Shown piece by piece: positions 1,003 through 15,309 of a stretch of DNA of 24,000 bases. The notes beneath the pieces were generated by a model. The model searched no databases, had not been told where the DNA came from, and saw nothing but the letters and a program-made list of their open reading frames with translations. The translations under genes and the position numbers were made by a program. The stretch spans positions 936,594 to 960,593 of the forward strand of contig NZ_CP067420.1 in assembly GCF_016653635.2 (NCBI RefSeq). Direction: 5' to 3'. This DNA is from Skermanella cutis (lineage in GTDB: Bacteria > Pseudomonadota > Alphaproteobacteria > Azospirillales > Azospirillaceae). Numbering within the stretch: position 1 is the first letter of the stretch; the number at the start of each line of letters is the position of its first letter.

Positions 1003-1653
1003 ATGCAACCAGCCCCCCCTTCCTCATCCACCCCGGTGATCCGCCTGACCGCCCGCCAGGAGGCGTTCTGCCAAGCCATGGCCGAGAATGTCGGCGGGGC
1101 GGAGGCGGCCCGGCGGGCGGGGTATTCGCCGAACGGGGCGAAGCAGCGCGGAGCCTTCCTGATGACCCGGCCGGAGATCCGCATCCGGGTCGATCAACTC
1201 CGCGCCGCCCGCAACGGCAGCCACCAGTCCGACCTGGAGGAGGCGGCGGAGACCGTCAAGACCATCATCGCCGAGGCCATGGACAGGAAGTCGCTGTCGC
1301 TCGCCCTGCGCGCGGTCGAATTGCGGCTCAAGCTGCGCGGCGTGATCCGGGACAAGCGGATTCCCCACCACTATGTCAGCGACGCCCCGCATCCCGACGC
1401 CGACCTGGAGCAGCTGGATTTCGACCCGGCCGAGGATGACGACGCCCCCGCTGCCGAGATGCCGGCCGAGGCCCCGGAAGAGGCCGCGTCAGAGGCCCCG
1501 GCCGAAACAGTGACCTCCGATAGTGACCCTGCGCCGGCCCCCGCCGGCGCCGGGCGGCCGACGTCGGCAAACCCCACGCAAAAGCCCTTCCGCCACCGCG
1601 AGCGGGGCGGCGGCCCGGGCCGCGAAGGGCACCGGGACCGCCGCGCCGCTTAA
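1003..1653 (+). CDS. Phage terminase small-subunit-like (Terminase_2-type N-terminal HTH) protein with an acidic, Pro/Ala-rich low-complexity tail
   Basis: This is the internal ATG of ORF 766..1653, in frame and preceded by an AT-rich stretch at 925-970. The N-terminus LTARQEAFCQAMAENVGGAEAARRAGYSPNGAKQRGAFLMTRPEIRIRVDQL matches the conserved TerS HTH signature (LT.kQ..Fc..Y...gna..Aa..AGYs...A). The rest is low complexity (DDDAPAAEMPAEAPEEAASEAPAE...). Confidence 0.6.
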   Translation: MQPAPPSSSTPVIRLTARQEAFCQAMAENVGGAEAARRAGYSPNGAKQRGAFLMTRPEIRIRVDQLRAARNGSHQSDLEEAAETVKTIIAEAMDRKSLSLALRAVELRLKLRGVIRDKRIPHHYVSDAPHPDADLEQLDFDPAEDDDAPAAEMPAEAPEEAASEAPAETVTSDSDPAPAPAGAGRPTSANPTQKPFRHRERGGGPGREGHRDRRAA

Positions 1654-4277: not shown

Positions 4278-5420
4278 TCAGGGCGCCCGCAACCGCTCCG
4301 GCGCCAGATCCGTGGCCTTCACGCCGAGGGCGGCGAGATCCTCCGGCACCCGCCCGTCGGCCAGCAGCCCGGCGGCGGTCCGCGCCATTCCAGGCGCCGT
4401 CTGGATGCCGTAGCCGCCCTGGCCGGCCAGCCAGAAGAATCCTTCCGCCTCCGGGTCGGGACCCACCACCGGACTCTTGTCCGGGGCGAAGGTGCGAAGC
4501 CCGGCCCAGCGGTGGCCGATCCGCCGGACCTTGAACAGGCACGCCCGCTCGATCCGGTCAACCGTCAGGGCAACGTCGAGTTCCTCCGGCTGGACGTCGC
4601 AAGGCTCGACCGGCGTCTCGTCGGCCGGCGAGCCCAGGAGCCGGCCGCCCTCGGGTTTGAAATAGAACGTTTCGTCCACGTCGCAAACCATCGGCCAGCG
4701 GGGCAGGCCGGCCTCGTCCGGGATCGGCGTGGGATCGAAGGTGATCGCCGTCCGGCGTTTCGGCACCAGGCCGACCGGGGCCAGCCCCGCCATCCCGGCG
4801 ACCGCGTCGGCCCAGGCCCCGGCGGCGTTGACGATCCAGGGGGCCTCGAAGGCTCCGGCGCGGGTCTCCGCCCGCCAGGTCCCGTCCCGGCGGCTCAGTC
4901 CCGTCAGCTCCGCGTCGGTCACGACCTCGCCGCCCCGGGCGCGCAGCCCGCGCAGATAGCCCTGGTGGATCGCGTGGACGTCCATGTCCATGGCGTCCGG
5001 CTCCCACACCGCGCCCGCGACATAGTCCGGCCGAAGCATCGGGGCGAGCGCCAGGGTCGCCTCGCGGTCCAGCAATTCCACCGACGGCGTCAGGACGCTG
5101 CCGGTGCGGAAGGCGCCGTCCAGGCCGTCCCTCTGGTCGTCCCGCCCGACCAGCACCACGCCGCGCGGGGTCAGCACCGGATGCGCGGCGAAGCCCGAAG
5201 CCACGGCGGCGTCGTAGAAGGGGCGGCTGCCGACGGTCAGCGCCCGGATCGCCGCGTTGCCGTAGGTCTCGGTATAGAGGGCGGCGGAGCGGCCGGTCGA
5301 GTGGTAGCCCGGCTGGGCCTCGCGCTCCAGCAGCACGACGCGGCCGCGGGACGAGAGCTCGTAGGCCGCGGAAGCTCCGGCGATGCCGCCGCCGATGATC
5401 AGGAAGTCGCAGGAAGTCAT
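4278..5420 (-). CDS. FAD-dependent oxidoreductase (DAO / glycine-sarcosine oxidase-like family)
   Basis: N-terminal dinucleotide-binding motif DFLIIGGGIAGASAAYELS. The 380-aa length and overall pattern are typical of the DAO family. The substrate cannot be assigned from the sequence. Confidence 0.85.
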   Translation of the reverse strand: MTSCDFLIIGGGIAGASAAYELSSRGRVVLLEREAQPGYHSTGRSAALYTETYGNAAIRALTVGSRPFYDAAVASGFAAHPVLTPRGVVLVGRDDQRDGLDGAFRTGSVLTPSVELLDREATLALAPMLRPDYVAGAVWEPDAMDMDVHAIHQGYLRGLRARGGEVVTDAELTGLSRRDGTWRAETRAGAFEAPWIVNAAGAWADAVAGMAGLAPVGLVPKRRTAITFDPTPIPDEAGLPRWPMVCDVDETFYFKPEGGRLLGSPADETPVEPCDVQPEELDVALTVDRIERACLFKVRRIGHRWAGLRTFAPDKSPVVGPDPEAEGFFWLAGQGGYGIQTAPGMARTAAGLLADGRVPEDLAALGVKATDLAPERLRAP

Positions 5421-5533: not shown

Positions 5534-8500
5534 TCAGGCGGCGCCCCGCAGTTCCTCGGCGCGGCGCAGATCGACGGACACCAGCTGGGAAACGCCGCGC
5601 TCGCCCATGGTGACGCCGAACAGCCGGTCCATCCGGGCCATGGTCAGGCGGTGATGAGTGATGATCAGGAAGCGGGTGGCGCCGACGCGGGCCATCTCCT
5701 CGACCAGGGTGCAGAAGCGGTCGACGTTGGCCTCGTCCAGGGGCGCGTCCACCTCGTCCAGCACGCAGATCGGCGCCGGGTTGGTCAGGAACACGGCGAA
5801 CAGCAGCGACAGCGCGGTCAGCGCCTGCTCGCCGCCCGACAGCAGGGACAGCACCTGGAGCCGCTTGCCCGGCGGGCTGGCATAGATCTCCAGCCCGGCG
5901 TCCAGCGGGTCCTCCGCCTCGGTCAGCTTCAGGTACGCCTTGCCGCCGCCGAACAGCCGGACGAACATGTCCTGGAAATGCCGGTCCACCGTCTCGAACG
6001 AGGCCAGCAGCCGTTCCCGCGCCTCCCTGTTGAGGCTGGAGATGCCCTGGCGCAGGCGGCCGATCGCGGCGACCAGATCGGCGCGCTCGCTCTGCATGCC
6101 GGCGATCTGCTGGTCCAGCTCGGCCGCCTCGGCCTCGGCCAGCAGGTTGACGGGTCCCATGTTCTCGCGCTCGCGCGCCAGCTTCTCCAGCCGCGCCTCG
6201 ATGCCGGCCGGGTCCGGAAGCGGCTCGCCGGGCGGCAGGTCGGCCAGGGCGGCCGTCTGCTCCGGCGCGCATTCCAGCTTCTCGGCGATCCGCTCCCGCA
6301 CCGCCTCCAGCGTCTGGCGGGCCGAGGCCACGGCGGCTTCCGCCCGCACGCGGGCCTCGCGGGCGTCGCCCAGCCCTGTCTCGGCCTGTTTCAGGCGCTT
6401 CTCGGTGGCGGCCAGCGTCGCTTCGGCCTCGTTCAGGGTGTCGGCGGCGCGCTTGCGCACCCGTTCGGCATCGGCGATCCGGGTCGCCAGGTCGGCGCGC
6501 TCCGCCTCGATCTCATCGGGCCGGCCGGCCAGCTCCTCAAGCTCGGCCTTCGCGGTCTCGGCGCGCTCCATCAGTTCGGCCAGGCGCTCGTCCGCCCCGT
6601 CGGACCGGTTCGTCCAGCCGCGCCGTTCCGCCTCGATCGCGGCGAGGCGCTGGCGCCGGCCCTGGGCCTCGCGCAGGGTGCGGTCCAGCGCGTTCTGCCG
6701 GCCGGCCAGATCGGCGCGGGTCTCCGCCAGGGTGGCGCGCAGCTCGGCGACCCGCTCCCGCGCCCGGCCTGATTCGGGCAGCGCGTCCAGGGCGGCCCGC
6801 GCCTCGGCGACCTGGCGCTCGGCCTCGCGGCGGTCGGCGTCCAGGCGGTCCACCGCCTCGGCCAGGGCGGTCAGGCGGGAGGCCGCGGCGGCAGCGGCCT
6901 GGGCCAGCTTGGCGTGCTGGTCGCGGGTCCGGCCGACCGCGCCGAAGGCGTCCCGCACGGCGTCCCGGCAGCGCCGTTCCTGGGCCGCCGCCTCCGACGC
7001 GGCGGTGCGGGCGGCCTCGAACTCCTCCCGCGCGTGGACGGAGGTATCCTCGGCGCTTTCCAGCTCCAGGCGAAGCTCGGCGAGGCGGTTGCGCTGCTTC
7101 AGCCGGATCGCGGCCGCCGTCGGCGCTCCCGCCGCGACCGACAGCCCGTCCCAGCGCCAGGACGCGCCGTCGCGCGTGACCAGGATCTGGCCGGGCAGCA
7201 GGGTCGGGGCCAGGGCGTTGCCCTCCTCGGCACCCGCGACGACGCCGATATGGTCGAGGCAGCGGGCCAGGGCGGGGGGCGCCTTGACCCGGGAGGCCAG
7301 CGGCTCCGCCCCGGCGGGCAGCGGCGCGGTCCGGTCGAGCGCCGGGTGCGCCCGCCAGTGGACCGCCGCCGCCTCGTCCAGCGGTGCCGTCAGGCCGTCG
7401 CCCAGCGCCGCGGCGATCGCGACCTCGTAGTCCGGCGCCACGGCGACGGCATCGATCAGCGGCGGGAACAGGTCGCCGGAGCCGGACTCCAGAAGCTCCG
7501 ACAGCGCCGTCTCCTCCGCCTTCAGCCGGGCGCGGGCGCCATCCGCCGCCTGCAGGGCATCGCGGCTCCGGGCCTGCGCCGCTTCGGCCGCCGCCTTGGC
7601 GTGTTCCGCCGCCTCGGCCCGGTCGCGGGCGAGGTCCAGCGCCTCCTCCGCGGCGGCGACGGCTTGCTCCGCCGCCTCGATGTCGGGGCGGGACGCCAGC
7701 TCGGCCTCCAGGGCGGCGCGCTGGCGCTGCTGCTCGTCGAGCCGGCGGGTCGCGGTCGCCAGCCGCTGGTCCAGGTCGGCGGACTGCCGCTGAAGGGCGG
7801 TGCGCCGGGCATCGTCGGCCGCGGTCCGCTCGGTCAGCGCCGTCAGCTCCCGGTCCAGCGCCTCGACACGCTCGCGGGCCTCCGCCAGGGACTCGCGGGC
7901 GGCCTCCTCGACGGCGGCCTCGTCGCCCTGTTCCTCGACCAGGCCGTCCCGCTCGTCGGCGAGGCGGGCCAGCGCCGTCCCGGCGTCCTCCGCCAGCGCC
8001 CGCTCGCGCGCCAGGTCGGTCGCGACCTGGGCCAGCCGGCGCTGGTTGGCGGTCCGGGCCTCGGCGACCCGCTTCTCCTCCGCGTCCAGCGCCTCGCGGG
8101 CGATCACCAGCCGCTGGAGCGCCTGAGCCGCCTGGGCCTCGGCCTGGCGGAGGCGGGGCAGCCCCTCGGCGTCGGCGGCGCGCCGGGTGGTCTCGGCCGC
8201 GACCTCGCCCATGCGGTCGCGCACCAGCACCTCGGCATCGTTGAAGGCGAGCCGCGCCGCCGCTAGCGCCGCCTGGGCCGCGATCCATCTGATGTGGAGC
8301 AGCACCGCCTCGGTCCGGCGGACCTGTTCGCTGAGGTTCCGGTAGCGCGAGGCCTGCCGCGCCTGCTTGCGCAGCGTGCCGAGCTGGGCGTCCATGGTGA
8401 CGATCACGTCGTCCAGGCGCATCAGGTTGGCCTCGGCCGCCTTCAGGCGCAGCTCCGCCTCATGGCGCCGGGAATGCAGCCCGGTGATGCCGGCCGCCTC

Positions 8501-8995
8501 CTCCAGCAGGACGCGGCGCTCGGTCGGCTTGGCGTTGATGAGGGTGCCGATGCGGCCCTGGCTGACCAATGCCGGGGAATTGGCGCCGCTGGCATTGTCG
8601 GCGAACAGCAACTGGACGTCGCGGGCGCGCACCAGCTTGCCGTTGATCCGGTAGTCGGACCCGGAGCCGCGCTCGATCCTGCGCTGGATCTCCAGGTCGT
8701 CGAACTCGTTGAAGCCGGCGGGGGCGGTGCGCCGCGAGTTGTCCACCCCCAGCGTCACCTCGGCGATGTTGCGGGCCGGCCGCCTGTCGGTCCCGCCGAA
8801 GATGACGTCGTCCATGTCGTCGCCGCGCATCTTCTTGGCCGAGGTCTCGCCCATGACCCAGCGGAGCGCCTCGACCAGGTTGGACTTGCCGCAGCCGTTG
8901 GGACCGACGATGCCGGTCATGCCCGGCTCGATCACCAGTTCGGTGGGGTCGACGAACGACTTGAAGCCGGAGATGCGGAGCTTGACGAACTGCAC
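5534..8995 (-). CDS. smc: Chromosome segregation protein SMC
   Basis: 1153 aa. It has the N-terminal Walker A (GPNGCGKSNLVEALRWVMGE), long Ala/Glu/Arg-rich coiled coils and a central hinge. The C-terminus carries the signature motif LSGGE and Walker B (CVLDEVDAPLDEAN). Confidence 0.95.
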   Translation of the reverse strand: MQFVKLRISGFKSFVDPTELVIEPGMTGIVGPNGCGKSNLVEALRWVMGETSAKKMRGDDMDDVIFGGTDRRPARNIAEVTLGVDNSRRTAPAGFNEFDDLEIQRRIERGSGSDYRINGKLVRARDVQLLFADNASGANSPALVSQGRIGTLINAKPTERRVLLEEAAGITGLHSRRHEAELRLKAAEANLMRLDDVIVTMDAQLGTLRKQARQASRYRNLSEQVRRTEAVLLHIRWIAAQAALAAARLAFNDAEVLVRDRMGEVAAETTRRAADAEGLPRLRQAEAQAAQALQRLVIAREALDAEEKRVAEARTANQRRLAQVATDLARERALAEDAGTALARLADERDGLVEEQGDEAAVEEAARESLAEARERVEALDRELTALTERTAADDARRTALQRQSADLDQRLATATRRLDEQQRQRAALEAELASRPDIEAAEQAVAAAEEALDLARDRAEAAEHAKAAAEAAQARSRDALQAADGARARLKAEETALSELLESGSGDLFPPLIDAVAVAPDYEVAIAAALGDGLTAPLDEAAAVHWRAHPALDRTAPLPAGAEPLASRVKAPPALARCLDHIGVVAGAEEGNALAPTLLPGQILVTRDGASWRWDGLSVAAGAPTAAAIRLKQRNRLAELRLELESAEDTSVHAREEFEAARTAASEAAAQERRCRDAVRDAFGAVGRTRDQHAKLAQAAAAAASRLTALAEAVDRLDADRREAERQVAEARAALDALPESGRARERVAELRATLAETRADLAGRQNALDRTLREAQGRRQRLAAIEAERRGWTNRSDGADERLAELMERAETAKAELEELAGRPDEIEAERADLATRIADAERVRKRAADTLNEAEATLAATEKRLKQAETGLGDAREARVRAEAAVASARQTLEAVRERIAEKLECAPEQTAALADLPPGEPLPDPAGIEARLEKLARERENMGPVNLLAEAEAAELDQQIAGMQSERADLVAAIGRLRQGISSLNREARERLLASFETVDRHFQDMFVRLFGGGKAYLKLTEAEDPLDAGLEIYASPPGKRLQVLSLLSGGEQALTALSLLFAVFLTNPAPICVLDEVDAPLDEANVDRFCTLVEEMARVGATRFLIITHHRLTMARMDRLFGVTMGERGVSQLVSVDLRRAEELRGAA

Positions 8996-10481: not shown

Positions 10482-11624
10482 ATGACATTGCACTCGGAAC
10501 CAAGCCTTTTCCCCGCGCCGCCGGCCCGGACCCCAGCCCGGATCATGGAACCGGACGAACTGGCCCGGTCGATGCTGGGCTGGTACGACCGGCACCGGCG
10601 CGTGCTGCCCTGGCGCGCGCCGGCCGGCAGGACCGCCGACCCCTACCATGTCTGGCTGTCGGAGATCATGCTCCAGCAGACCACGGTCGTCACCGTCGGA
10701 CCCTATTTCCAGGAACTCCTGCGGCGCTGGCCGACCGTCGCCGACCTGGCGGCGGCCGACCTCGACGCCGTCCTCCACGCCTGGGCGGGGCTCGGCTACT
10801 ACGCCCGGGCGCGCAACCTGCACAAGTGCGCCCGGGTGGTGGCCGACGGGCACGGCGGCCGGTTTCCCGATAATGAACAGGAATTGCGGCAACTTCCGGG
10901 CATCGGCGCCTATACCGCCGCGGCCGTCGCCGCCATCGCCTTCGACCGCCGCGCCACCGTGCTGGACGGCAACGTGGAACGCGTGATGGCGCGGCTTTTC
11001 GCGGTCGAGGAGCCGCTGCCGGCCTCCAAGGAGAAGCTCCGCGCGCTGGCCGACACCATCACGCCGGACCGGCGCCCCGGGGACTATGCCCAGGCCGTGA
11101 TGGACCTGGGCGCCACTGTCTGCACGCCGCGCAAGCCGAAATGCCCGCGATGCCCCTGGCACGACGGCTGCGCCGCCCGGGCCGCCGGCATCGCCGAATC
11201 GCTGCCGCGCAAGACGCCCAAGGCGGAGAAGCCGACCCGCCGCGGCACGGCGTTCTGGCTGCTCAACCCCGAAGGCGCGGTGCTGCTGCGCCGCCGCCCC
11301 GAGAGCGGGCTGCTGGGCGGCATGATCGAGGTGCCGTCGGGCGACTGGCTGGAGCGGCCGGCCCAGAGCCTGGCCGCGGCCTCGGTCCAGGCGCCGTTCG
11401 CTGCGTCCTGGCGGCTGCTGCCCGGGCTGGTCCGCCATACCTTCACCCATTTTCACCTGGAACTTCAGGTCGCGGCCGCCCGACTCGGCGCCGGGGATGG
11501 CGACGGCTGGATGCGGGCCGACGGCATCTGGGTGCCGGTCGACCGGCTGTCGGAACACGCCGTTCCCACGGTGATGCGCAAGGTGGTACGGCATGCGCTG
11601 GGCAGCATTGGAGTTCCCGAATGA
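10482..11624 (+). CDS. mutY: A/G-specific adenine DNA glycosylase MutY
   Basis: It has the HhH-GPD motifs (LPWR....DPY.VWLSEIMLQQT, LPGIGAYTAAAVAAIAF) and the 4Fe-4S cluster loop C-X6-C-X2-C-X5-C (CTPRKPKCPRCPWHDGC). A NUDIX-like C-terminal domain is also present. The start at 10482 (MTLHSEP) is uncertain; an alternative ATG lies at 10545. Confidence 0.9.
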   Translation: MTLHSEPSLFPAPPARTPARIMEPDELARSMLGWYDRHRRVLPWRAPAGRTADPYHVWLSEIMLQQTTVVTVGPYFQELLRRWPTVADLAAADLDAVLHAWAGLGYYARARNLHKCARVVADGHGGRFPDNEQELRQLPGIGAYTAAAVAAIAFDRRATVLDGNVERVMARLFAVEEPLPASKEKLRALADTITPDRRPGDYAQAVMDLGATVCTPRKPKCPRCPWHDGCAARAAGIAESLPRKTPKAEKPTRRGTAFWLLNPEGAVLLRRRPESGLLGGMIEVPSGDWLERPAQSLAAASVQAPFAASWRLLPGLVRHTFTHFHLELQVAAARLGAGDGDGWMRADGIWVPVDRLSEHAVPTVMRKVVRHALGSIGVPE

Positions 11625-12334
11625 TCCTCATCCGAAGCCTGGCCGCGGCCGTCCTCCTCCTGCTGGCCGGCGCCGCCGCACGGGCCGACCAGCCGGTCGA
11701 CCTTGAGTTGGTGATGGCCGTGGACGCGTCGGGCAGCATCACGACGGGCGCGCTGGAATTCCAGCTGCGCGGCCACGCGGCCGCCTTCCGCAGCGCCGAG
11801 GTGGCGGAGTCCCTGACCGTCGGCGGCACCCGGTCGGTCGCCGTCACGCTGGTCCAATGGGCGGGCCCCAACACCCTGGAGATCGTGGTGCCCTGGGCGC
11901 GGGTCGCGGACGCCGCCGACGCCAAGGCCTTCGCCGAACGGATCGGCGCGATGACACGGCCGCCCCTGGACGGCAGCACCGCCATGGGCAGCGCCATCGA
12001 CCGGGCGGCCGACCTGTTCGACGGCAACGGCTTCGAGGCGCCCCGCCGGATCATCGACATCTGCAGCAACGGCTTCAGCAACAGCGGCGTGGACGTCGAG
12101 GGTGCCCGCGACCGCGCCGTGGCCCGGGGCATCACCATCAACGCCCTGGCGATCCTGGACGAATACGACTGGCTGGAGGATTATTACGCGGAGAGCGTCA
12201 TCGGCGGCCCCTTCTCCTTCGTCCGCACCGCCGAGAACCGCGACAGCTTCGCCGAGGCCATCCTGCGCAAGCTGGTCGAGGAGATCGCGGGAGGGTACGG
12301 GGGGCTGGAACGGCGGCGGCTGGCGGCGCGGTGA
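11621..12334 (+). CDS. DUF1194 (vWA-like) domain protein, exported
   Basis: This is the internal ATG of ORF 11141..12334. It has a signal peptide (MILIRSLAAAVLLLLAGAAARA) followed by DLELVMAVDASGSI...IIDICSNGFSNSG...GITINALAI...YY...VIGGPFSFV, the typical DUF1194 pattern. The start overlaps the mutY stop (ATGA). Confidence 0.8.
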   Translation: MILIRSLAAAVLLLLAGAAARADQPVDLELVMAVDASGSITTGALEFQLRGHAAAFRSAEVAESLTVGGTRSVAVTLVQWAGPNTLEIVVPWARVADAADAKAFAERIGAMTRPPLDGSTAMGSAIDRAADLFDGNGFEAPRRIIDICSNGFSNSGVDVEGARDRAVARGITINALAILDEYDWLEDYYAESVIGGPFSFVRTAENRDSFAEAILRKLVEEIAGGYGGLERRRLAAR

Positions 12335-12447
12335 GTCGCGCTTTGAGGATCGGTCCTTGAAGCCATCGATTGCCTGGGCACTGTCCTGACGGAGGACATC
12401 ACGGTTTCAGGCGAACTGGGTTCTTCAGGGTGCTCTTGGACGTAACG

Positions 12448-13482
12448 TCAGGTGTTTGGAATCCAACCCTTGCTCTGCAGGGTCTGGAAGGCGATGCCGA
12501 TCTGGCGTGGAGAAAACCGCTTCTTGCGCTCGTTCCAGGCATAGGCCCTGGAAACCGCGGCTTCTCGGCTGACGGCATTCTCCTTGGTCGCTACCCAGTG
12601 CACCGTGGCGAGAAGTTCCAACCCGAATGGTGTCTCGAATCCTTCCACAAGCCGGGCGACGCGATCGAAGCGCACTCTCGTTTCTTGCTTGTCCGACAAG
12701 AAGGATCCGGCGTCCTTGACCGCGCCTGGAACCAGTTCGAGCTGCTTGTCCGGTGAGTCGCCGCCATCGGCGTAACCTGATACAAGGTGTCCTTCGACCG
12801 CGCGCAGAACATGCCGGAGATTTTCAGCATATGGGCCATACGGCCCTTTCGTGTACTGAAGCCGCAACGGTTCACCCGCTTCCTGCATGAAGTACATCAG
12901 CTTATGCAGTTCGATCAGTGTCACGAACGGATCCATCAGTCCGCCGAGATAGCGATGCATCAACGCCACGAGCGCAGCACGCCCAGGCGTCATGGCCGGA
13001 ATCTCGCGCGACTTAGTGGTGACGAGTGTATTGTTAGGTTCAAAGACGATCACCCGCAGATCATCGAAGCTGGACAAAGCTTCCACGATCCGTGGGCGCA
13101 CATCTGCCCAATCGAGTCCTCCAAGGCCGCTGCCGAGCGGCGGGATCGCGATCGAGCGAATGCCGCGTGCATGGATTTCTTCGACAAGCGCCTTCAAACC
13201 GGAGTCGATGTCTTCCATTCGGCTATTGCCACGCCAATGCCGCTTGGTAGGAAAGTTGATGATGAATCTCGGATTCGTGAGGGAGCGGGTTTCGAAGACG
13301 AACATATTGCCGGGCTGCACTTCGTCGCGTGCGCAAGCCGCTTCATAAGCTTTGAAATTTTCAGGAAACGCATTCTTGAACTGAAGGGCAATCCCCCGGC
13401 CCATGATTCCGACACAGTTGACTGTATTGACGATTGCTTCGACGTCTGCCGCCAAAATATCTCCTGTCCTGAAATTAATCAC
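12448..13482 (-). CDS. darG: DarG antitoxin: N-terminal macrodomain (DNA ADP-ribosyl glycohydrolase) plus C-terminal toxin-binding domain
   Basis: Macrodomain signature GDILAADVEAIVNTVNCVGIMGRGIALQFKNAFPEN....IINFPTKRHW...IAIPPLGSGLGG. The gene has a GTG start with a GGAGA Shine-Dalgarno sequence 6 nt upstream and begins 12 nt after the darT stop. The 344-aa size is typical of DarG. Confidence 0.9.
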   Translation of the reverse strand: MINFRTGDILAADVEAIVNTVNCVGIMGRGIALQFKNAFPENFKAYEAACARDEVQPGNMFVFETRSLTNPRFIINFPTKRHWRGNSRMEDIDSGLKALVEEIHARGIRSIAIPPLGSGLGGLDWADVRPRIVEALSSFDDLRVIVFEPNNTLVTTKSREIPAMTPGRAALVALMHRYLGGLMDPFVTLIELHKLMYFMQEAGEPLRLQYTKGPYGPYAENLRHVLRAVEGHLVSGYADGGDSPDKQLELVPGAVKDAGSFLSDKQETRVRFDRVARLVEGFETPFGLELLATVHWVATKENAVSREAAVSRAYAWNERKKRFSPRQIGIAFQTLQSKGWIPNT

Positions 13483-13494
13483 GGGTGTTCTCCA

Positions 13495-14130
13495 TCAATA
13501 GTACCAATCTTTTTTTACTTTCACTTTTGGTCTGTGCTCAGTTTTTCCTAGGGCTGCGATCGCACGGGTGCCAGTTCGTTCCGAGTATACGGCGACTCCC
13601 CTGACTAGCTCCCATGGGAAGTTCTCGTGCATAAGAAATTCTGCCATCTTGTGATCTCGGCAGGAAGCCCAGTTTCTTGCAGCAATCGCTGCCCAATTCA
13701 GCCTATCGAGATCAGCAAGATCATTGTAGAAATCAGCCGCCCGACTGGCCGCATTGATGTCCGTGAATGCCCAGCGACGCTCTTTGACGGCTGCCCAGGC
13801 TACAACCTCCTGCATGTCCGCTACGAGATGCACGACCGGTTCCTGACCATCCTTGTACGTTACATTGGGATGGTTGCGCTTAGAAATGACATAGAGCATC
13901 ACCGAGCGCGGGCAAAGATAGAAAGGAACGTAGTCGCCGACGTAGGTACCCGCATGGCAATCAACGGGCAGATGCAGTCGATCAGCCTTGATCTCGCTGT
14001 TTCCAATAACTGCCGCCCTCTGCCGCTTTACCATGACGGAGTCCGGCCACAAGCACCCGTCCGCGACTATCGACGCGAGATTATCCACGTGAACGATATG
14101 GTAGATCTTTGGACGATCAGGTATCGGCAT
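13495..14130 (-). CDS. darT: DarT toxin: DUF4433 ssDNA ADP-ribosyltransferase
   Basis: N-terminal IYHIVHVDNLASIV, then DYVPFYLCPRSVMLY, then KMAEFLMHENFPWELV with the conserved Glu, and a C-terminal KKDWYY. I recall the same motif order from characterised DarT proteins. It lies directly upstream of a macrodomain gene. Confidence 0.9.
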   Translation of the reverse strand: MPIPDRPKIYHIVHVDNLASIVADGCLWPDSVMVKRQRAAVIGNSEIKADRLHLPVDCHAGTYVGDYVPFYLCPRSVMLYVISKRNHPNVTYKDGQEPVVHLVADMQEVVAWAAVKERRWAFTDINAASRAADFYNDLADLDRLNWAAIAARNWASCRDHKMAEFLMHENFPWELVRGVAVYSERTGTRAIAALGKTEHRPKVKVKKDWYY

Positions 14131-14310
14131 TTCAGGCGGCTGTTCTCACATCACATGTCTTCGCCGACAGGCTTGTTGAGGATGGCTGCTCCGTCTTCCG
14201 CCGCCATCCCGTCCAGTTGCCCATTTATAGTGGCCCGGCCCAGTCAGAGTCGTTGAAAATCGTATGGCATGCCCCGGCGCCGATCGATGTCGGCTGGCCA
14301 GTGACCCACT

Positions 14311-15309
14311 TCACCCGGCGTCTTGCGCGTCGCTCGCCAGCACCGTCTCCTCCGTCAGCTTCGGCTTCGGGTCGGCAGGCGTCCGGCCGGGCGGGATCAG
14401 GCCGTCGCGCTGGCGCAGCAGGTTGTGGATCGCGGTCGCCGCGACCGCCGCCTGACCCATGGAGACGGAGATCTGGTTCAGCCCCTCCACCACGTCGCCC
14501 ACGGCGTAGAAGCCGGGGACGGAGGTTTGGCAGTGGCTGTCCACGGCCAGGCGGCCCTGGTTGTTCATGTCGGCGCCGAGCTGGCCGGCCAGCGTCGAGC
14601 GGGCCAGCGTGCCGAGGGCGGAATAGAGCGTGTCGAAGGCCAGCTCGGCGCCGCTCTTCAGGATCACCTTGGTGATCCGGCCGGCCTCCTCGGTCACCCG
14701 CTCCACCTGTTCCTCGACGATCGCGATGCCCAGGTCCGACAGCTTGGCACGGTCGTCGGCCGTCAGGTTCATCGGCGTGCCGAGCGTCAGCAGGGTCAGG
14801 TCCGACGTGTAGCCGCGGATGAACAGCACCTCGCCCAGGGCGTCGCGACCGTGGCCGATCACCGCCACCTTGCGGTCGATCACCTCGTAGGCGTCGCAGA
14901 TCGGGCAAACCCGGATCAGGCCGCGCTGCACCGTGTCGAACAGGTTGGGCAGGCGGGGCTGGTCGTCGATCACGCCGGTCGCCAGGATGACGGTCTCGGC
15001 GTCCAGCTCGACGCCGTCGGCGGTGGTGGCGCGGAAACCGCGGTCGCCCAGGCGGCGCAGCGAGGCGATCGAGCCCGTATCGATGCGGGCGCCGTATTGT
15101 CGGGCCTGGCACCGCATCCGCTCCAGCAGCTCGATGCCGTTGATGCCCTCCATGAAGCCCGCGTGGTTATGGGAGTTCGGGATCCAGGCGCATCGGCTCT
15201 TATCCTCGTCCACCACCAGGATGTCGCGCCTGTAGCGCACGAGATAGATGGCGGCCGTCAATCCGCCGGGGCCGCCGCCGACGATCAGGCAATCGAGCAT
15301 GCCGGACAT
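14311..15309 (-). CDS. NAD(P)/FAD-dependent oxidoreductase, thioredoxin-reductase-like, with a CPIC redox motif
   Basis: FAD motif CLIVGGGPGGLTAAIYL and a second Rossmann motif KVAVIGHGRDALGE. A CxxC (RVCPICDAYE) sits at the TrxR active-site position, and GFYAVGDV is present near the C-terminus. Confidence 0.85.
   Translation of the reverse strand: MSGMLDCLIVGGGPGGLTAAIYLVRYRRDILVVDEDKSRCAWIPNSHNHAGFMEGINGIELLERMRCQARQYGARIDTGSIASLRRLGDRGFRATTADGVELDAETVILATGVIDDQPRLPNLFDTVQRGLIRVCPICDAYEVIDRKVAVIGHGRDALGEVLFIRGYTSDLTLLTLGTPMNLTADDRAKLSDLGIAIVEEQVERVTEEAGRITKVILKSGAELAFDTLYSALGTLARSTLAGQLGADMNNQGRLAVDSHCQTSVPGFYAVGDVVEGLNQISVSMGQAAVAATAIHNLLRQRDGLIPPGRTPADPKPKLTEETVLASDAQDAG

Follow-up and report, generated by a model that had tools for sequence, protein, structure and literature searches.

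Two classes of DarT-DarG toxin-antitoxin system have been distinguished: in DarTG2 the antitoxin is a macrodomain protein and thymidine is modified at N3, while in DarTG1 the antitoxin is a NADAR protein and guanosine is modified at N2 (PMC11543638). The founding DarTG2 systems are those of Thermus aquaticus and Thermus sp. 2.9, for which structures exist of DarT (PDB codes: 7OMV-7ON0) and of the DarG macrodomain (PDB codes: 5M31/5M3E). DarTG of Mycobacterium tuberculosis (PDB codes: 7YK3, 5M3I) is chromosomal, and published accounts describe its darG as essential and the system as tied to replication and growth control (PMC5179494; PMC12170906). For Escherichia coli DarTG2 and the DarTG of enteropathogenic E. 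coli (EPEC), modification of thymidine in TCT/TTT motifs of single-stranded DNA (ssDNA) and protection against phage are reported (PMC7003065, PMC9967889, PMC11543638). Here we analyse a stretch of 24,000 nucleotides (nt) from the chromosome of Skermanella cutis, a member of the Azospirillaceae (contig NZ_CP067420.1, positions 936,594 to 960,593; hereafter the window), in which the 1,976-bp interval 12335-14310 is very probably a toxin-antitoxin module of the DarTG2 type that was acquired horizontally and is a candidate for anti-phage function.

The 211-amino-acid (aa) product of the upstream gene of the interval matches the DarT family of Pfam (PF14487) along the entire profile (positions 1-201 of 201) at an E-value of 3.8e-59 (200 bits, cut-off 22.5), the DarT model of PADLOC at 1.3e-67, and the NCBIfam equivalog NF048013 (toxin_DarT) with 243 bits (cut-off 150). 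The 344-aa product of the downstream gene matches Pfam Macro at 4.3e-26, the DarG model of PADLOC at 2.9e-137 and, over its full length, the NCBIfam equivalog NF048014 (antitoxin_DarG) with 463 bits (cut-off 250). An earlier model-made reading of this DNA, obtained without database searches (the sequence-only reading), had assigned the pair to the known DarT-DarG family rather than to a new one and had pointed to profile and defence-system searches as the check; Pfam, PADLOC, which calls both DarT and DarG, and the NCBIfam equivalogs, well above cut-off, all bear this assignment out. The DarT motifs it had listed are present as described, with IYHIVHVDNL starting at residue 9, YVPFYLCPRS at 67, AEFLMHENFPW at 163 and KDWYY at 207.

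The only PDB relatives of the protein are the DarTs of Thermus and M. tuberculosis, both of which are thymidine-specific (Thermus sp. 2.9 DarT, 7omv, 3.7e-37; M. tuberculosis DarT, 7yk3_A, 2.3e-16). HMMER and MAFFT alignments to these two chains place R51, F70-Y71, M78 and E164 in conserved columns, which correspond to R51, Y71, M78 and E160 in Thermus; the fold family and the C-terminal WYY are likewise shared with the Thermus enzyme. In the described mechanism R51 polarises nicotinamide adenine dinucleotide (NAD+) and abstracts a proton, Y71 stacks against the nicotinamide, M78 stabilises the oxocarbenium ion and E160 is the ADP-ribosyltransferase glutamate (PMC9967889, PMC11543638). Both crystal chains have Ala in the E164 column, as expected of E-to-A mutants, and 7OMW is indeed given as DarT(E160A) (PMC9967889). 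For a wider comparison, 62 non-redundant darT-darG pairs were extracted from metagenomic and genomic loci (1,891 pairwise comparisons). R51 and E164 are invariant across these 62 DarTs, and in all 62 pairs darT lies upstream of darG on the same strand, as it does here and in Thermus.

The DarT of the window is 41% identical to that of Thermus and departs from it at two positions of interest: H65 is replaced by G65, as in 62/62 relatives, and H119, the base-coordinating residue, by N126. Since Asn occupies this position in M. tuberculosis DarT and in 62/62 macrodomain-linked DarTs, N126 is normal for the class; it is compatible with DarT2 but does not discriminate it from DarT1, whose residue is N104. 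The loop preceding the catalytic Glu is three residues shorter than in Thermus sp. 2.9 DarT and six residues shorter than in the DarTs of M. tuberculosis and Rhodospirillum centenum. Carry-over of the Thermus target motif TNTC to this DarT cannot be assumed.

Residues 1-150 of DarG match PDB chains 5m31 and 5m3i at approximately 1e-50 (9.5e-51 for 5m3i), residue 1 falling on chain residue 11. The chains are titled "Appr-1-p processing domain protein" and "RNase III inhibitor", respectively, and we take them to be the DarG macrodomains of T. aquaticus and M. tuberculosis. The sequence-only reading was thus right that the downstream protein begins with a macrodomain. N22, K80, H82, W83 and G119 are all present, the first four under the same numbers as in Thermus, and position 29 is Arg where T. 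aquaticus has Lys. K80 is the catalytic lysine, and mutation of N22, K29 or G119 impaired the T. aquaticus enzyme (PMC5179494). The alignments to the Thermus and M. tuberculosis structures also uphold the two residue counts made earlier, which put the catalytic Glu of DarT at 164 and the Lys of the DarG FPTKRHW motif at 80. C-terminal to the macrodomain, residues 164-333 match 7yk3_B, the M. tuberculosis DarG chain co-crystallised with DarT, at 8.3e-29. Homology to the M. tuberculosis system thus extends over both domains of DarG, while the two DarTs are only 29% identical.

Scanned with Pfam and NCBIfam, the partner protein shows a Macro domain only and no NADAR match. A macrodomain DarG without NADAR signal places the locus, therefore, in DarTG2 by sequence-level criteria; thymidine specificity and the target motif are predictions that follow the class. 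Membership of DarTG1, which has a DarT-family toxin, an enzymatic antitoxin and the Asn at the base-coordinating position in common with the locus, was rejected because the antitoxin here is a macrodomain and not a NADAR protein. None of the 11 PDB matches listed at E<=10 is named DarT1 or NADAR, although the PDB copy was not checked for DarT1 entries. The macrodomain partner and the exclusively thymidine-specific structural relatives agree with the DarT2-like class suggested earlier. With E. coli DarTG2 and EPEC DarTG the locus has the macrodomain-antitoxin class in common, and it differs from them in host, GC content and genomic context.

The two proteins of the module have not evolved alike. 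Across the 62 pairs, DarG sequences share on average 69% pairwise identity and DarT sequences 59% (correlation 0.42), and in 95% of the 1,891 comparisons DarT has the lower value. In toxin-antitoxin systems the usual pattern is the opposite. The DarT of the window groups with those of Skermanella pratensis (90% identity) and of the metagenomic loci L088-90 (79%) and L104 (70%), and is 41-55% identical to all others (approximately 45-50% to most), the DarGs of which are 67-85% identical to that of the window. By these identities the DarT clade is a minority one, consisting of the window, S. pratensis and two metagenomic lineages. Differences fixed in the clade (D50, D124, I125, A128, A131 and M162) lie beside R51, N126 and E164. 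The ratio of the nonsynonymous rates (dN) of darT and darG is approximately 1-2 in close pairs and approximately 4 in distant pairs. As synonymous divergence (dS) is saturated across the distant loci, this pattern can do no more than suggest recombination, toxin swapping or diversification, or a shuffling of modules. If swapping or diversifying selection is the cause, it is conceivable, but rather doubtful, that the clade recognises a motif other than TNTC, TTTW or TCT/TTT and is yet neutralised by a near-universal DarG.

A toxin that is not thymidine-specific at all, being either guanosine-specific like DarT1 or directed to a new base or motif, could also be read from these differences: Asn at position 126 resembles N104 of DarT1 and not the His of Thermus DarT2, the fixed substitutions flank the active-site residues, and most DarTs whose partners closely resemble the DarG of the window are only about 45-50% identical to this one. 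The same Asn, however, occurs in the thymidine-specific M. tuberculosis DarT and in every one of the 62 macrodomain-linked DarTs compared, the antitoxin is not a NADAR protein but a macrodomain DarG that has the K80 machinery for hydrolysing thymidine-linked ADP-ribose (PMC11543638), and no match named DarT1 or NADAR stands among the PDB matches listed at E<=10, with the reservation on DarT1 entries given above. We consider such a toxin unlikely.

We turn from the identity of the module to its origin. The islet is bounded exactly by the stop codons of two convergent host genes, one encoding a DUF1194 protein and the other a thioredoxin-reductase-like (TrxR-like) flavoprotein, and the homology of the window to the collinear S. 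stibiiresistens genome ends at 12330 and 14314, in accordance with the extent 12335-14310 that had been proposed. GC content is 0.53 in darT and 0.56 in darG, with third-position values (GC3) of 0.575 and 0.646, respectively. The corresponding figures are 0.72 and 0.93 for the DUF1194 gene, 0.70 and 0.94 for the TrxR-like gene and 0.68 and 0.93 for the gene of malate synthase G; the four neighbour genes span 0.68-0.72 in GC and 0.85-0.94 in GC3, and the window mean GC is 0.685. The contrast between islet and neighbours is far beyond chance. Positions and composition agree with the description of two co-directional genes 12 nt apart in a distinctly AT-richer stretch of about 2 kb, for which no strand had been given; darTG lies on the minus strand. 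The 12-nt spacing recurs in S. pratensis and other loci, and together with the GGAG motif in the spacer (Table 1) it suggests an operon or translational coupling of darT and darG.

At least 8,000 relatives of DarG were found at E<=1e-20. Those with 80-86% identity span several alphaproteobacterial orders and beyond, coming from Paracoccus versutus, R. centenum, Bradyrhizobium, Hyphomicrobiaceae, Stappia, Mesorhizobium, Ancylobacter, a Xanthobacter plasmid and a Bryobacteraceae metagenome-assembled genome (MAG), and judged from these sequences the similarity is far closer than host relatedness would give. The genomic contexts of the relatives vary. One pair is embedded in a type I restriction-modification operon (hsdM-hsdS-darT-darG-hsdR), and another adjoins a ResIII helicase/endonuclease gene and an N6_N4 methylase gene, a further set of restriction-modification type. 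A third shares its region with genes for type IV secretion and a transposase pair of the IS21 type, and we read this region as a probable integrative conjugative element. A fourth neighbours the suf operon and has a gene for a DDE_3 transposase downstream. In the R. centenum-type contigs L084-L086 (region L084 4012-4905), darT is called at 139 aa, yet a full-length 216-aa ORF (open reading frame) is present; the HTH_17 homologue upstream of it is a pseudogene with an in-frame stop, and HTH and DDE_3 transposase-type genes follow darG. The Thermus phage phiMa (MH673674.1, 26352-26957) encodes a full-length DarT homologue (37.7% identity, 2e-32) annotated as a hypothetical protein, and it is the sole phage record with a match.

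In the closest relatives a 72-aa HTH_17 gene (PF12728, 1.2e-15) lies 22 nt upstream of darT. The spacer upstream of the darT of the window retains approximately the last 22 codons of this gene, including the stop (ending in LDGMAAEDGAAILNKPVGEDM). The stub was matched by tblastn with the intact proteins of the relatives (55% identity across 20 aa; the E-value of 0.003 applies to a small search space). A blastn match to L088 that begins inside the HTH_17 gene and a further sequence alignment also support it. Weaker HTH_17 similarity may reach to about position 14270. The stub of S. pratensis contains the same 17-nt insertion as that of the window.

The insertion site was compared among five Skermanella genomes or MAGs. 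The best relatives of the TrxR-like protein are those of S. stibiiresistens (84%), a Skermanella MAG (82%) and S. aerolata (79-80%); within the genus the orthologues are 79-93% identical, and outside it 44-57%. The DUF1194 gene is collinear in S. stibiiresistens and S. pratensis. S. stibiiresistens, collinear with the window on both sides of the islet, has in its place (L003 9007-9834) a gene of host-like GC for a 276-aa formate/nitrite transporter. No remnant of this transporter gene was found in the window (best tblastn E = 1.1), and there is therefore no evidence that darTG replaced it. S. aerolata (L004) and the MAG (L005) have the orthologue of window 4278-5420 joined to their TrxR-like gene, and the SMC-DsbA-DciA-MutY-DUF1194 block is located elsewhere in both genomes. 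The junction of S. aerolata (L004 8955-9089) is approximately 134 bp long and without cargo. That of the MAG (L005 8850-9700) holds an islet of approximately 950 bp (GC 0.52-0.60) encoding a Gp49/HigB-like protein (PF05973, 2.7e-15) with a weak HTH partner, which by its domains is a different toxin-antitoxin pair. Because cargo and synteny differ in this manner among the Skermanella genomes, the 3' flank of the TrxR-like gene is regarded as a recurrently variable slot and a rearrangement breakpoint. The sequence-only reading had expected the DUF1194 and TrxR-like genes to be adjacent wherever the islet is absent; this did not hold, since none of the genomes examined shows that arrangement and each has other cargo or rearranged synteny instead.

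The means of entry has left few traces. No integrase, transposase or recombinase gene is present at the islet, where only the HTH_17 stub is left. The scan of the whole window revealed no tRNA, and hence no tRNA integration site, and the Rfam scan of the window at gathering thresholds revealed no RNA family. Between 11500 and 15500, the repeats that bracket the islet are a single 15-nt direct pair of 80% identity (12343/14176) and inverted pairs of 22-23 nt with 74-77% identity, which were taken as chance because the DNA is approximately 70% GC. The tRNA scan and the repeat search thus agree with the earlier remark that no integrase, transposase or convincing flanking direct repeat explains the arrival.

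The islet is not private to the strain. Apart from the source organism itself, the best match of DarG comes from S. pratensis, where NCBI annotates the protein as DarG (90% aa identity), and on CP030265.1 the gene order is malate synthase, TrxR-like, darT, darG, a Terminase_2-domain gene, DUF1194, MutY, DciA, DsbA and SMC. The pair thus occupies the same slot, with 90% aa and 87% nt identity, and HTH_17 is truncated to the same stub. Between the window and S. pratensis, backbone DNA shows 90-92% identity and the darTG segment (window 12368-14283) 87%. The ratio of nonsynonymous to synonymous divergence (dN/dS) is 0.096 for darT and 0.155 for darG, compared with 0.08-0.21 for backbone genes. 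Ratios this low (0.10-0.16) show that purifying selection has acted on darT and darG alike since the two species separated, and the earlier view that the locus is intact and probably live stands as far as sequence allows, with both ORFs full length. Two stretches are found in S. pratensis only: 1.1 kb between darG and the DUF1194 gene, containing the Terminase_2-domain gene, and approximately 230 bp after the TrxR-like gene (L083 8970-9199). The latter is bracketed by the similar short sequences TCGGCGGCGGTGCC and TCAGCGCCAGGGCATGCC, and could be a small insertion in S. pratensis or a deletion in the lineage of the window. The Terminase_2-domain gene was rejected as a part of the darTG cassette, as it accompanies darTG at no other locus and has a single relative, a paralogue in the window.

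We propose that a cassette HTH_17-darT-darG, probably part of something larger, was acquired once by the common ancestor of S. cutis and S. pratensis, and was inserted into the space that separates the convergent DUF1194 and TrxR-like genes. After entry HTH_17 would have been reduced to its last 22 or so codons, and darTG was kept under purifying selection. The composition, the absence from three of four congeners and the 80-86% identical DarGs of distant taxa favour the horizontal origin that had been claimed. An ancestral presence of darTG at this slot, followed by loss from the other species rather than by gain in one sub-lineage, would also account for its occurrence in the same slot of two species, and the comparison comprises only five genomes or MAGs. 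Nevertheless, a GC3 of 0.58-0.65 in a genome with GC3 of approximately 0.93 shows little amelioration, the three other congeners are each in a different state at the site, and near-identical DarGs occur in unrelated taxa and on mobile elements; we regard the ancestral presence as very unlikely. The case named earlier as contrary to an islet, that of two genes universally conserved at this position with host-like composition, was likewise not what we found, given the absence from three congeners and the GC3 values.

How the pair is transcribed was addressed by scanning 12200-14450. The scan gave no promoter-like site in either orientation, nor a terminator-like one on the minus strand, which is that of darTG; two terminator-like sites on the plus strand, both inside darG, occur at the frequency expected from shuffled sequences. 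The spacer between the TrxR-like gene and darT shows no excess of structure (z = +1.07 versus shuffles) and no terminator-like hairpin. The TrxR-like gene is co-directional with darT and ends 180 nt upstream of it. Transcription of darTG would most likely occur by read-through from the TrxR-like gene, or else start at a promoter of the 180-nt spacer that escaped recognition; since the TrxR-like and the malate synthase genes both run in the same direction as darTG, read-through is the most economical explanation. Could the pair be instead a silenced or decaying remnant that has lost regulator and promoter to truncation and only looks intact? The reduction of HTH_17 to a stub, the upstream spacer devoid of a promoter-like site and the fact that expression is deduced from sequence would fit. 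Against it, neither ORF is truncated and no catalytic residue is missing, dN/dS has been 0.10-0.16 in both genes since the split from S. pratensis, and the lack of a terminator between the TrxR-like gene and darT makes read-through plausible. A remnant of this kind seems to us most improbable.

By analogy with the characterised systems, there is a strong inference of thymidine-directed ADP-ribosylation of ssDNA with reversal by DarG. DarT would use NAD+ to put ADP-ribose on N3 of thymidine in a short ssDNA motif, and the modified thymidine would block replication; the DarG macrodomain, with K80 as the catalytic residue, would remove the ADP-ribose, and the C-terminal domain would bind DarT. 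When infection or stress upsets this balance, free DarT would modify host and phage DNA and replication would stop.

Several observations weigh against the locus being a working anti-phage DarTG2 acquired and inherited as proposed. The activity, specificity, motif and phage defence ascribed to DarT are transferred from homologues that are 29-41% identical in DarT. The substitutions of the clade adjoin catalytic residues, so that the motif or even the base preference could differ. Upstream of darT the scan detected nothing resembling a sigma-70 promoter, and HTH_17, the presumed regulator, is truncated. The dS of darT (0.53) and darG (0.37) versus S. pratensis is about twice that of the backbone (0.15-0.25), which may reflect weaker codon bias in low-GC genes, or later allelic replacement as opposed to strict vertical descent. 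Finally, darTG is isolated, without neighbouring defence genes, and a pure addiction or growth-control role is equally compatible with this setting.

The last point leads to the possibility that the locus is an active DarTG2 retained for addiction or stabilisation, or for the control of replication and growth, and not for phage protection, a role that we hold to be possible but short of probable. The islet stands alone, with no other defence gene detected in the window; the rest of the incoming element was lost and the pair kept; the Gp49/HTH pair at the equivalent position of the MAG fits modules that persist where they landed; and a growth-control role is described for M. tuberculosis DarTG (PMC12170906), while no such role is known for the Skermanella locus. 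On the other hand, macrodomain DarTG2 is reported to protect E. coli against phage (PMC11543638), V. cholerae DarTG is reported as phage defence (PMC10760071), and the closest relatives lie in type I restriction-modification operons and other defence or mobile contexts, which is suggestive only. The two roles are not mutually exclusive. The coordinates of the module and of its borders are collected in Table 1.

Table 1 The darTG islet and the host genes at its edges (window positions).
Feature	Position	Strand	Remarks
DUF1194/VWA host gene	11621..12334	plus	Convergent with darG, slot edge; Pfam DUF1194 6.4e-59, GC3 0.93
Non-coding 3' flank, darG stop to DUF1194 stop	12335..12447		113 bp, no strand; 12368-12447 common to S. 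pratensis
darG, complete gene	12448..13482	minus	GTG start, 344 aa; same length and start as the NCBI-annotated S. pratensis DarG
darG C-terminal domain, aa 164-333	12484..12993	minus	Homologous to the DarT-binding domain of M. tuberculosis DarG
darG N-terminal macrodomain, aa 1-155	13018..13482	minus	Putative ADP-ribosyl-thymidine glycohydrolase; Pfam Macro
darT-darG spacer	13483..13494	minus	12 nt, TGGAGAACACCC; GGAG Shine-Dalgarno-like motif before the darG GTG
darT	13495..14130	minus	ATG start, 211 aa; putative DNA ADP-ribosyltransferase toxin, DarT2 type
HTH_17 (AlpA/excisionase-type) gene, decayed 3' remnant	14154..14223	minus	Ends in LDGMAAEDGAAILNKPVGEDM and stop; abuts the darT start region
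Junction DNA, TrxR-like stop to cassette remnant	14224..14310	minus	Without S. stibiiresistens counterpart; partly common to S. pratensis
Thioredoxin-reductase-like flavoprotein host gene	14311..15309	minus	Other slot edge; Pfam Pyr_redox_2 1.6e-30, GC3 0.94

The sequence-only reading had called the module the only accessory system in the window. It is the only recognisable defence system; as a statement on accessory DNA the claim fails, since the segment 478-1679 (approximately 1.2 kb) is variable, being absent from the S. aerolata and MAG loci. It contains an ORF (1003-1650, plus strand, 216 aa) with an N-terminal Terminase_2 domain (small terminase/HTH, 1.4e-9) and an Ala/Pro/Glu-rich tail, and a paralogue of this ORF with 44-50% identity is the gene beside darG in S. 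pratensis (L083 11365-12099). The Terminase_2-domain gene may represent a small accessory gene that settles on its own in intergenic slots. Weak PADLOC hits of the SMC gene (mad3, LmuB, GajA and others) were rejected as a defence system, as they reflect generic SMC/ABC-ATPase similarity; the gene is a housekeeping one (1,153 aa, 5534-8995, minus strand) and is syntenic in S. pratensis. It contains a stretch of 0.75-0.80 GC, and a 450-aa ORF is open in antisense (6914-8266, plus strand), most likely a by-product of the extreme GC rather than a gene.

The locus adds one more DarTG2 to thousands, and standard annotation pipelines would label it correctly; the DarTG family was already known and the S. 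pratensis orthologue already annotated as DarG. The new details are the HTH_17 stub, the finding of no autonomous promoter or terminator, and a DarT far less conserved than its DarG. A toxin-antitoxin core stranded behind a host gene raises the question of how the module is regulated. The variable slot downstream of the TrxR-like gene could serve as a natural model for the way in which small toxin-antitoxin or defence cassettes establish themselves and are kept in the absence of mobility genes. The unequal rates of DarT and DarG could guide the engineering of specificity in DarT2-based DNA editors and, if toxin swapping or diversifying selection is truly at work, phage anti-DarT factors would be a possible driver.

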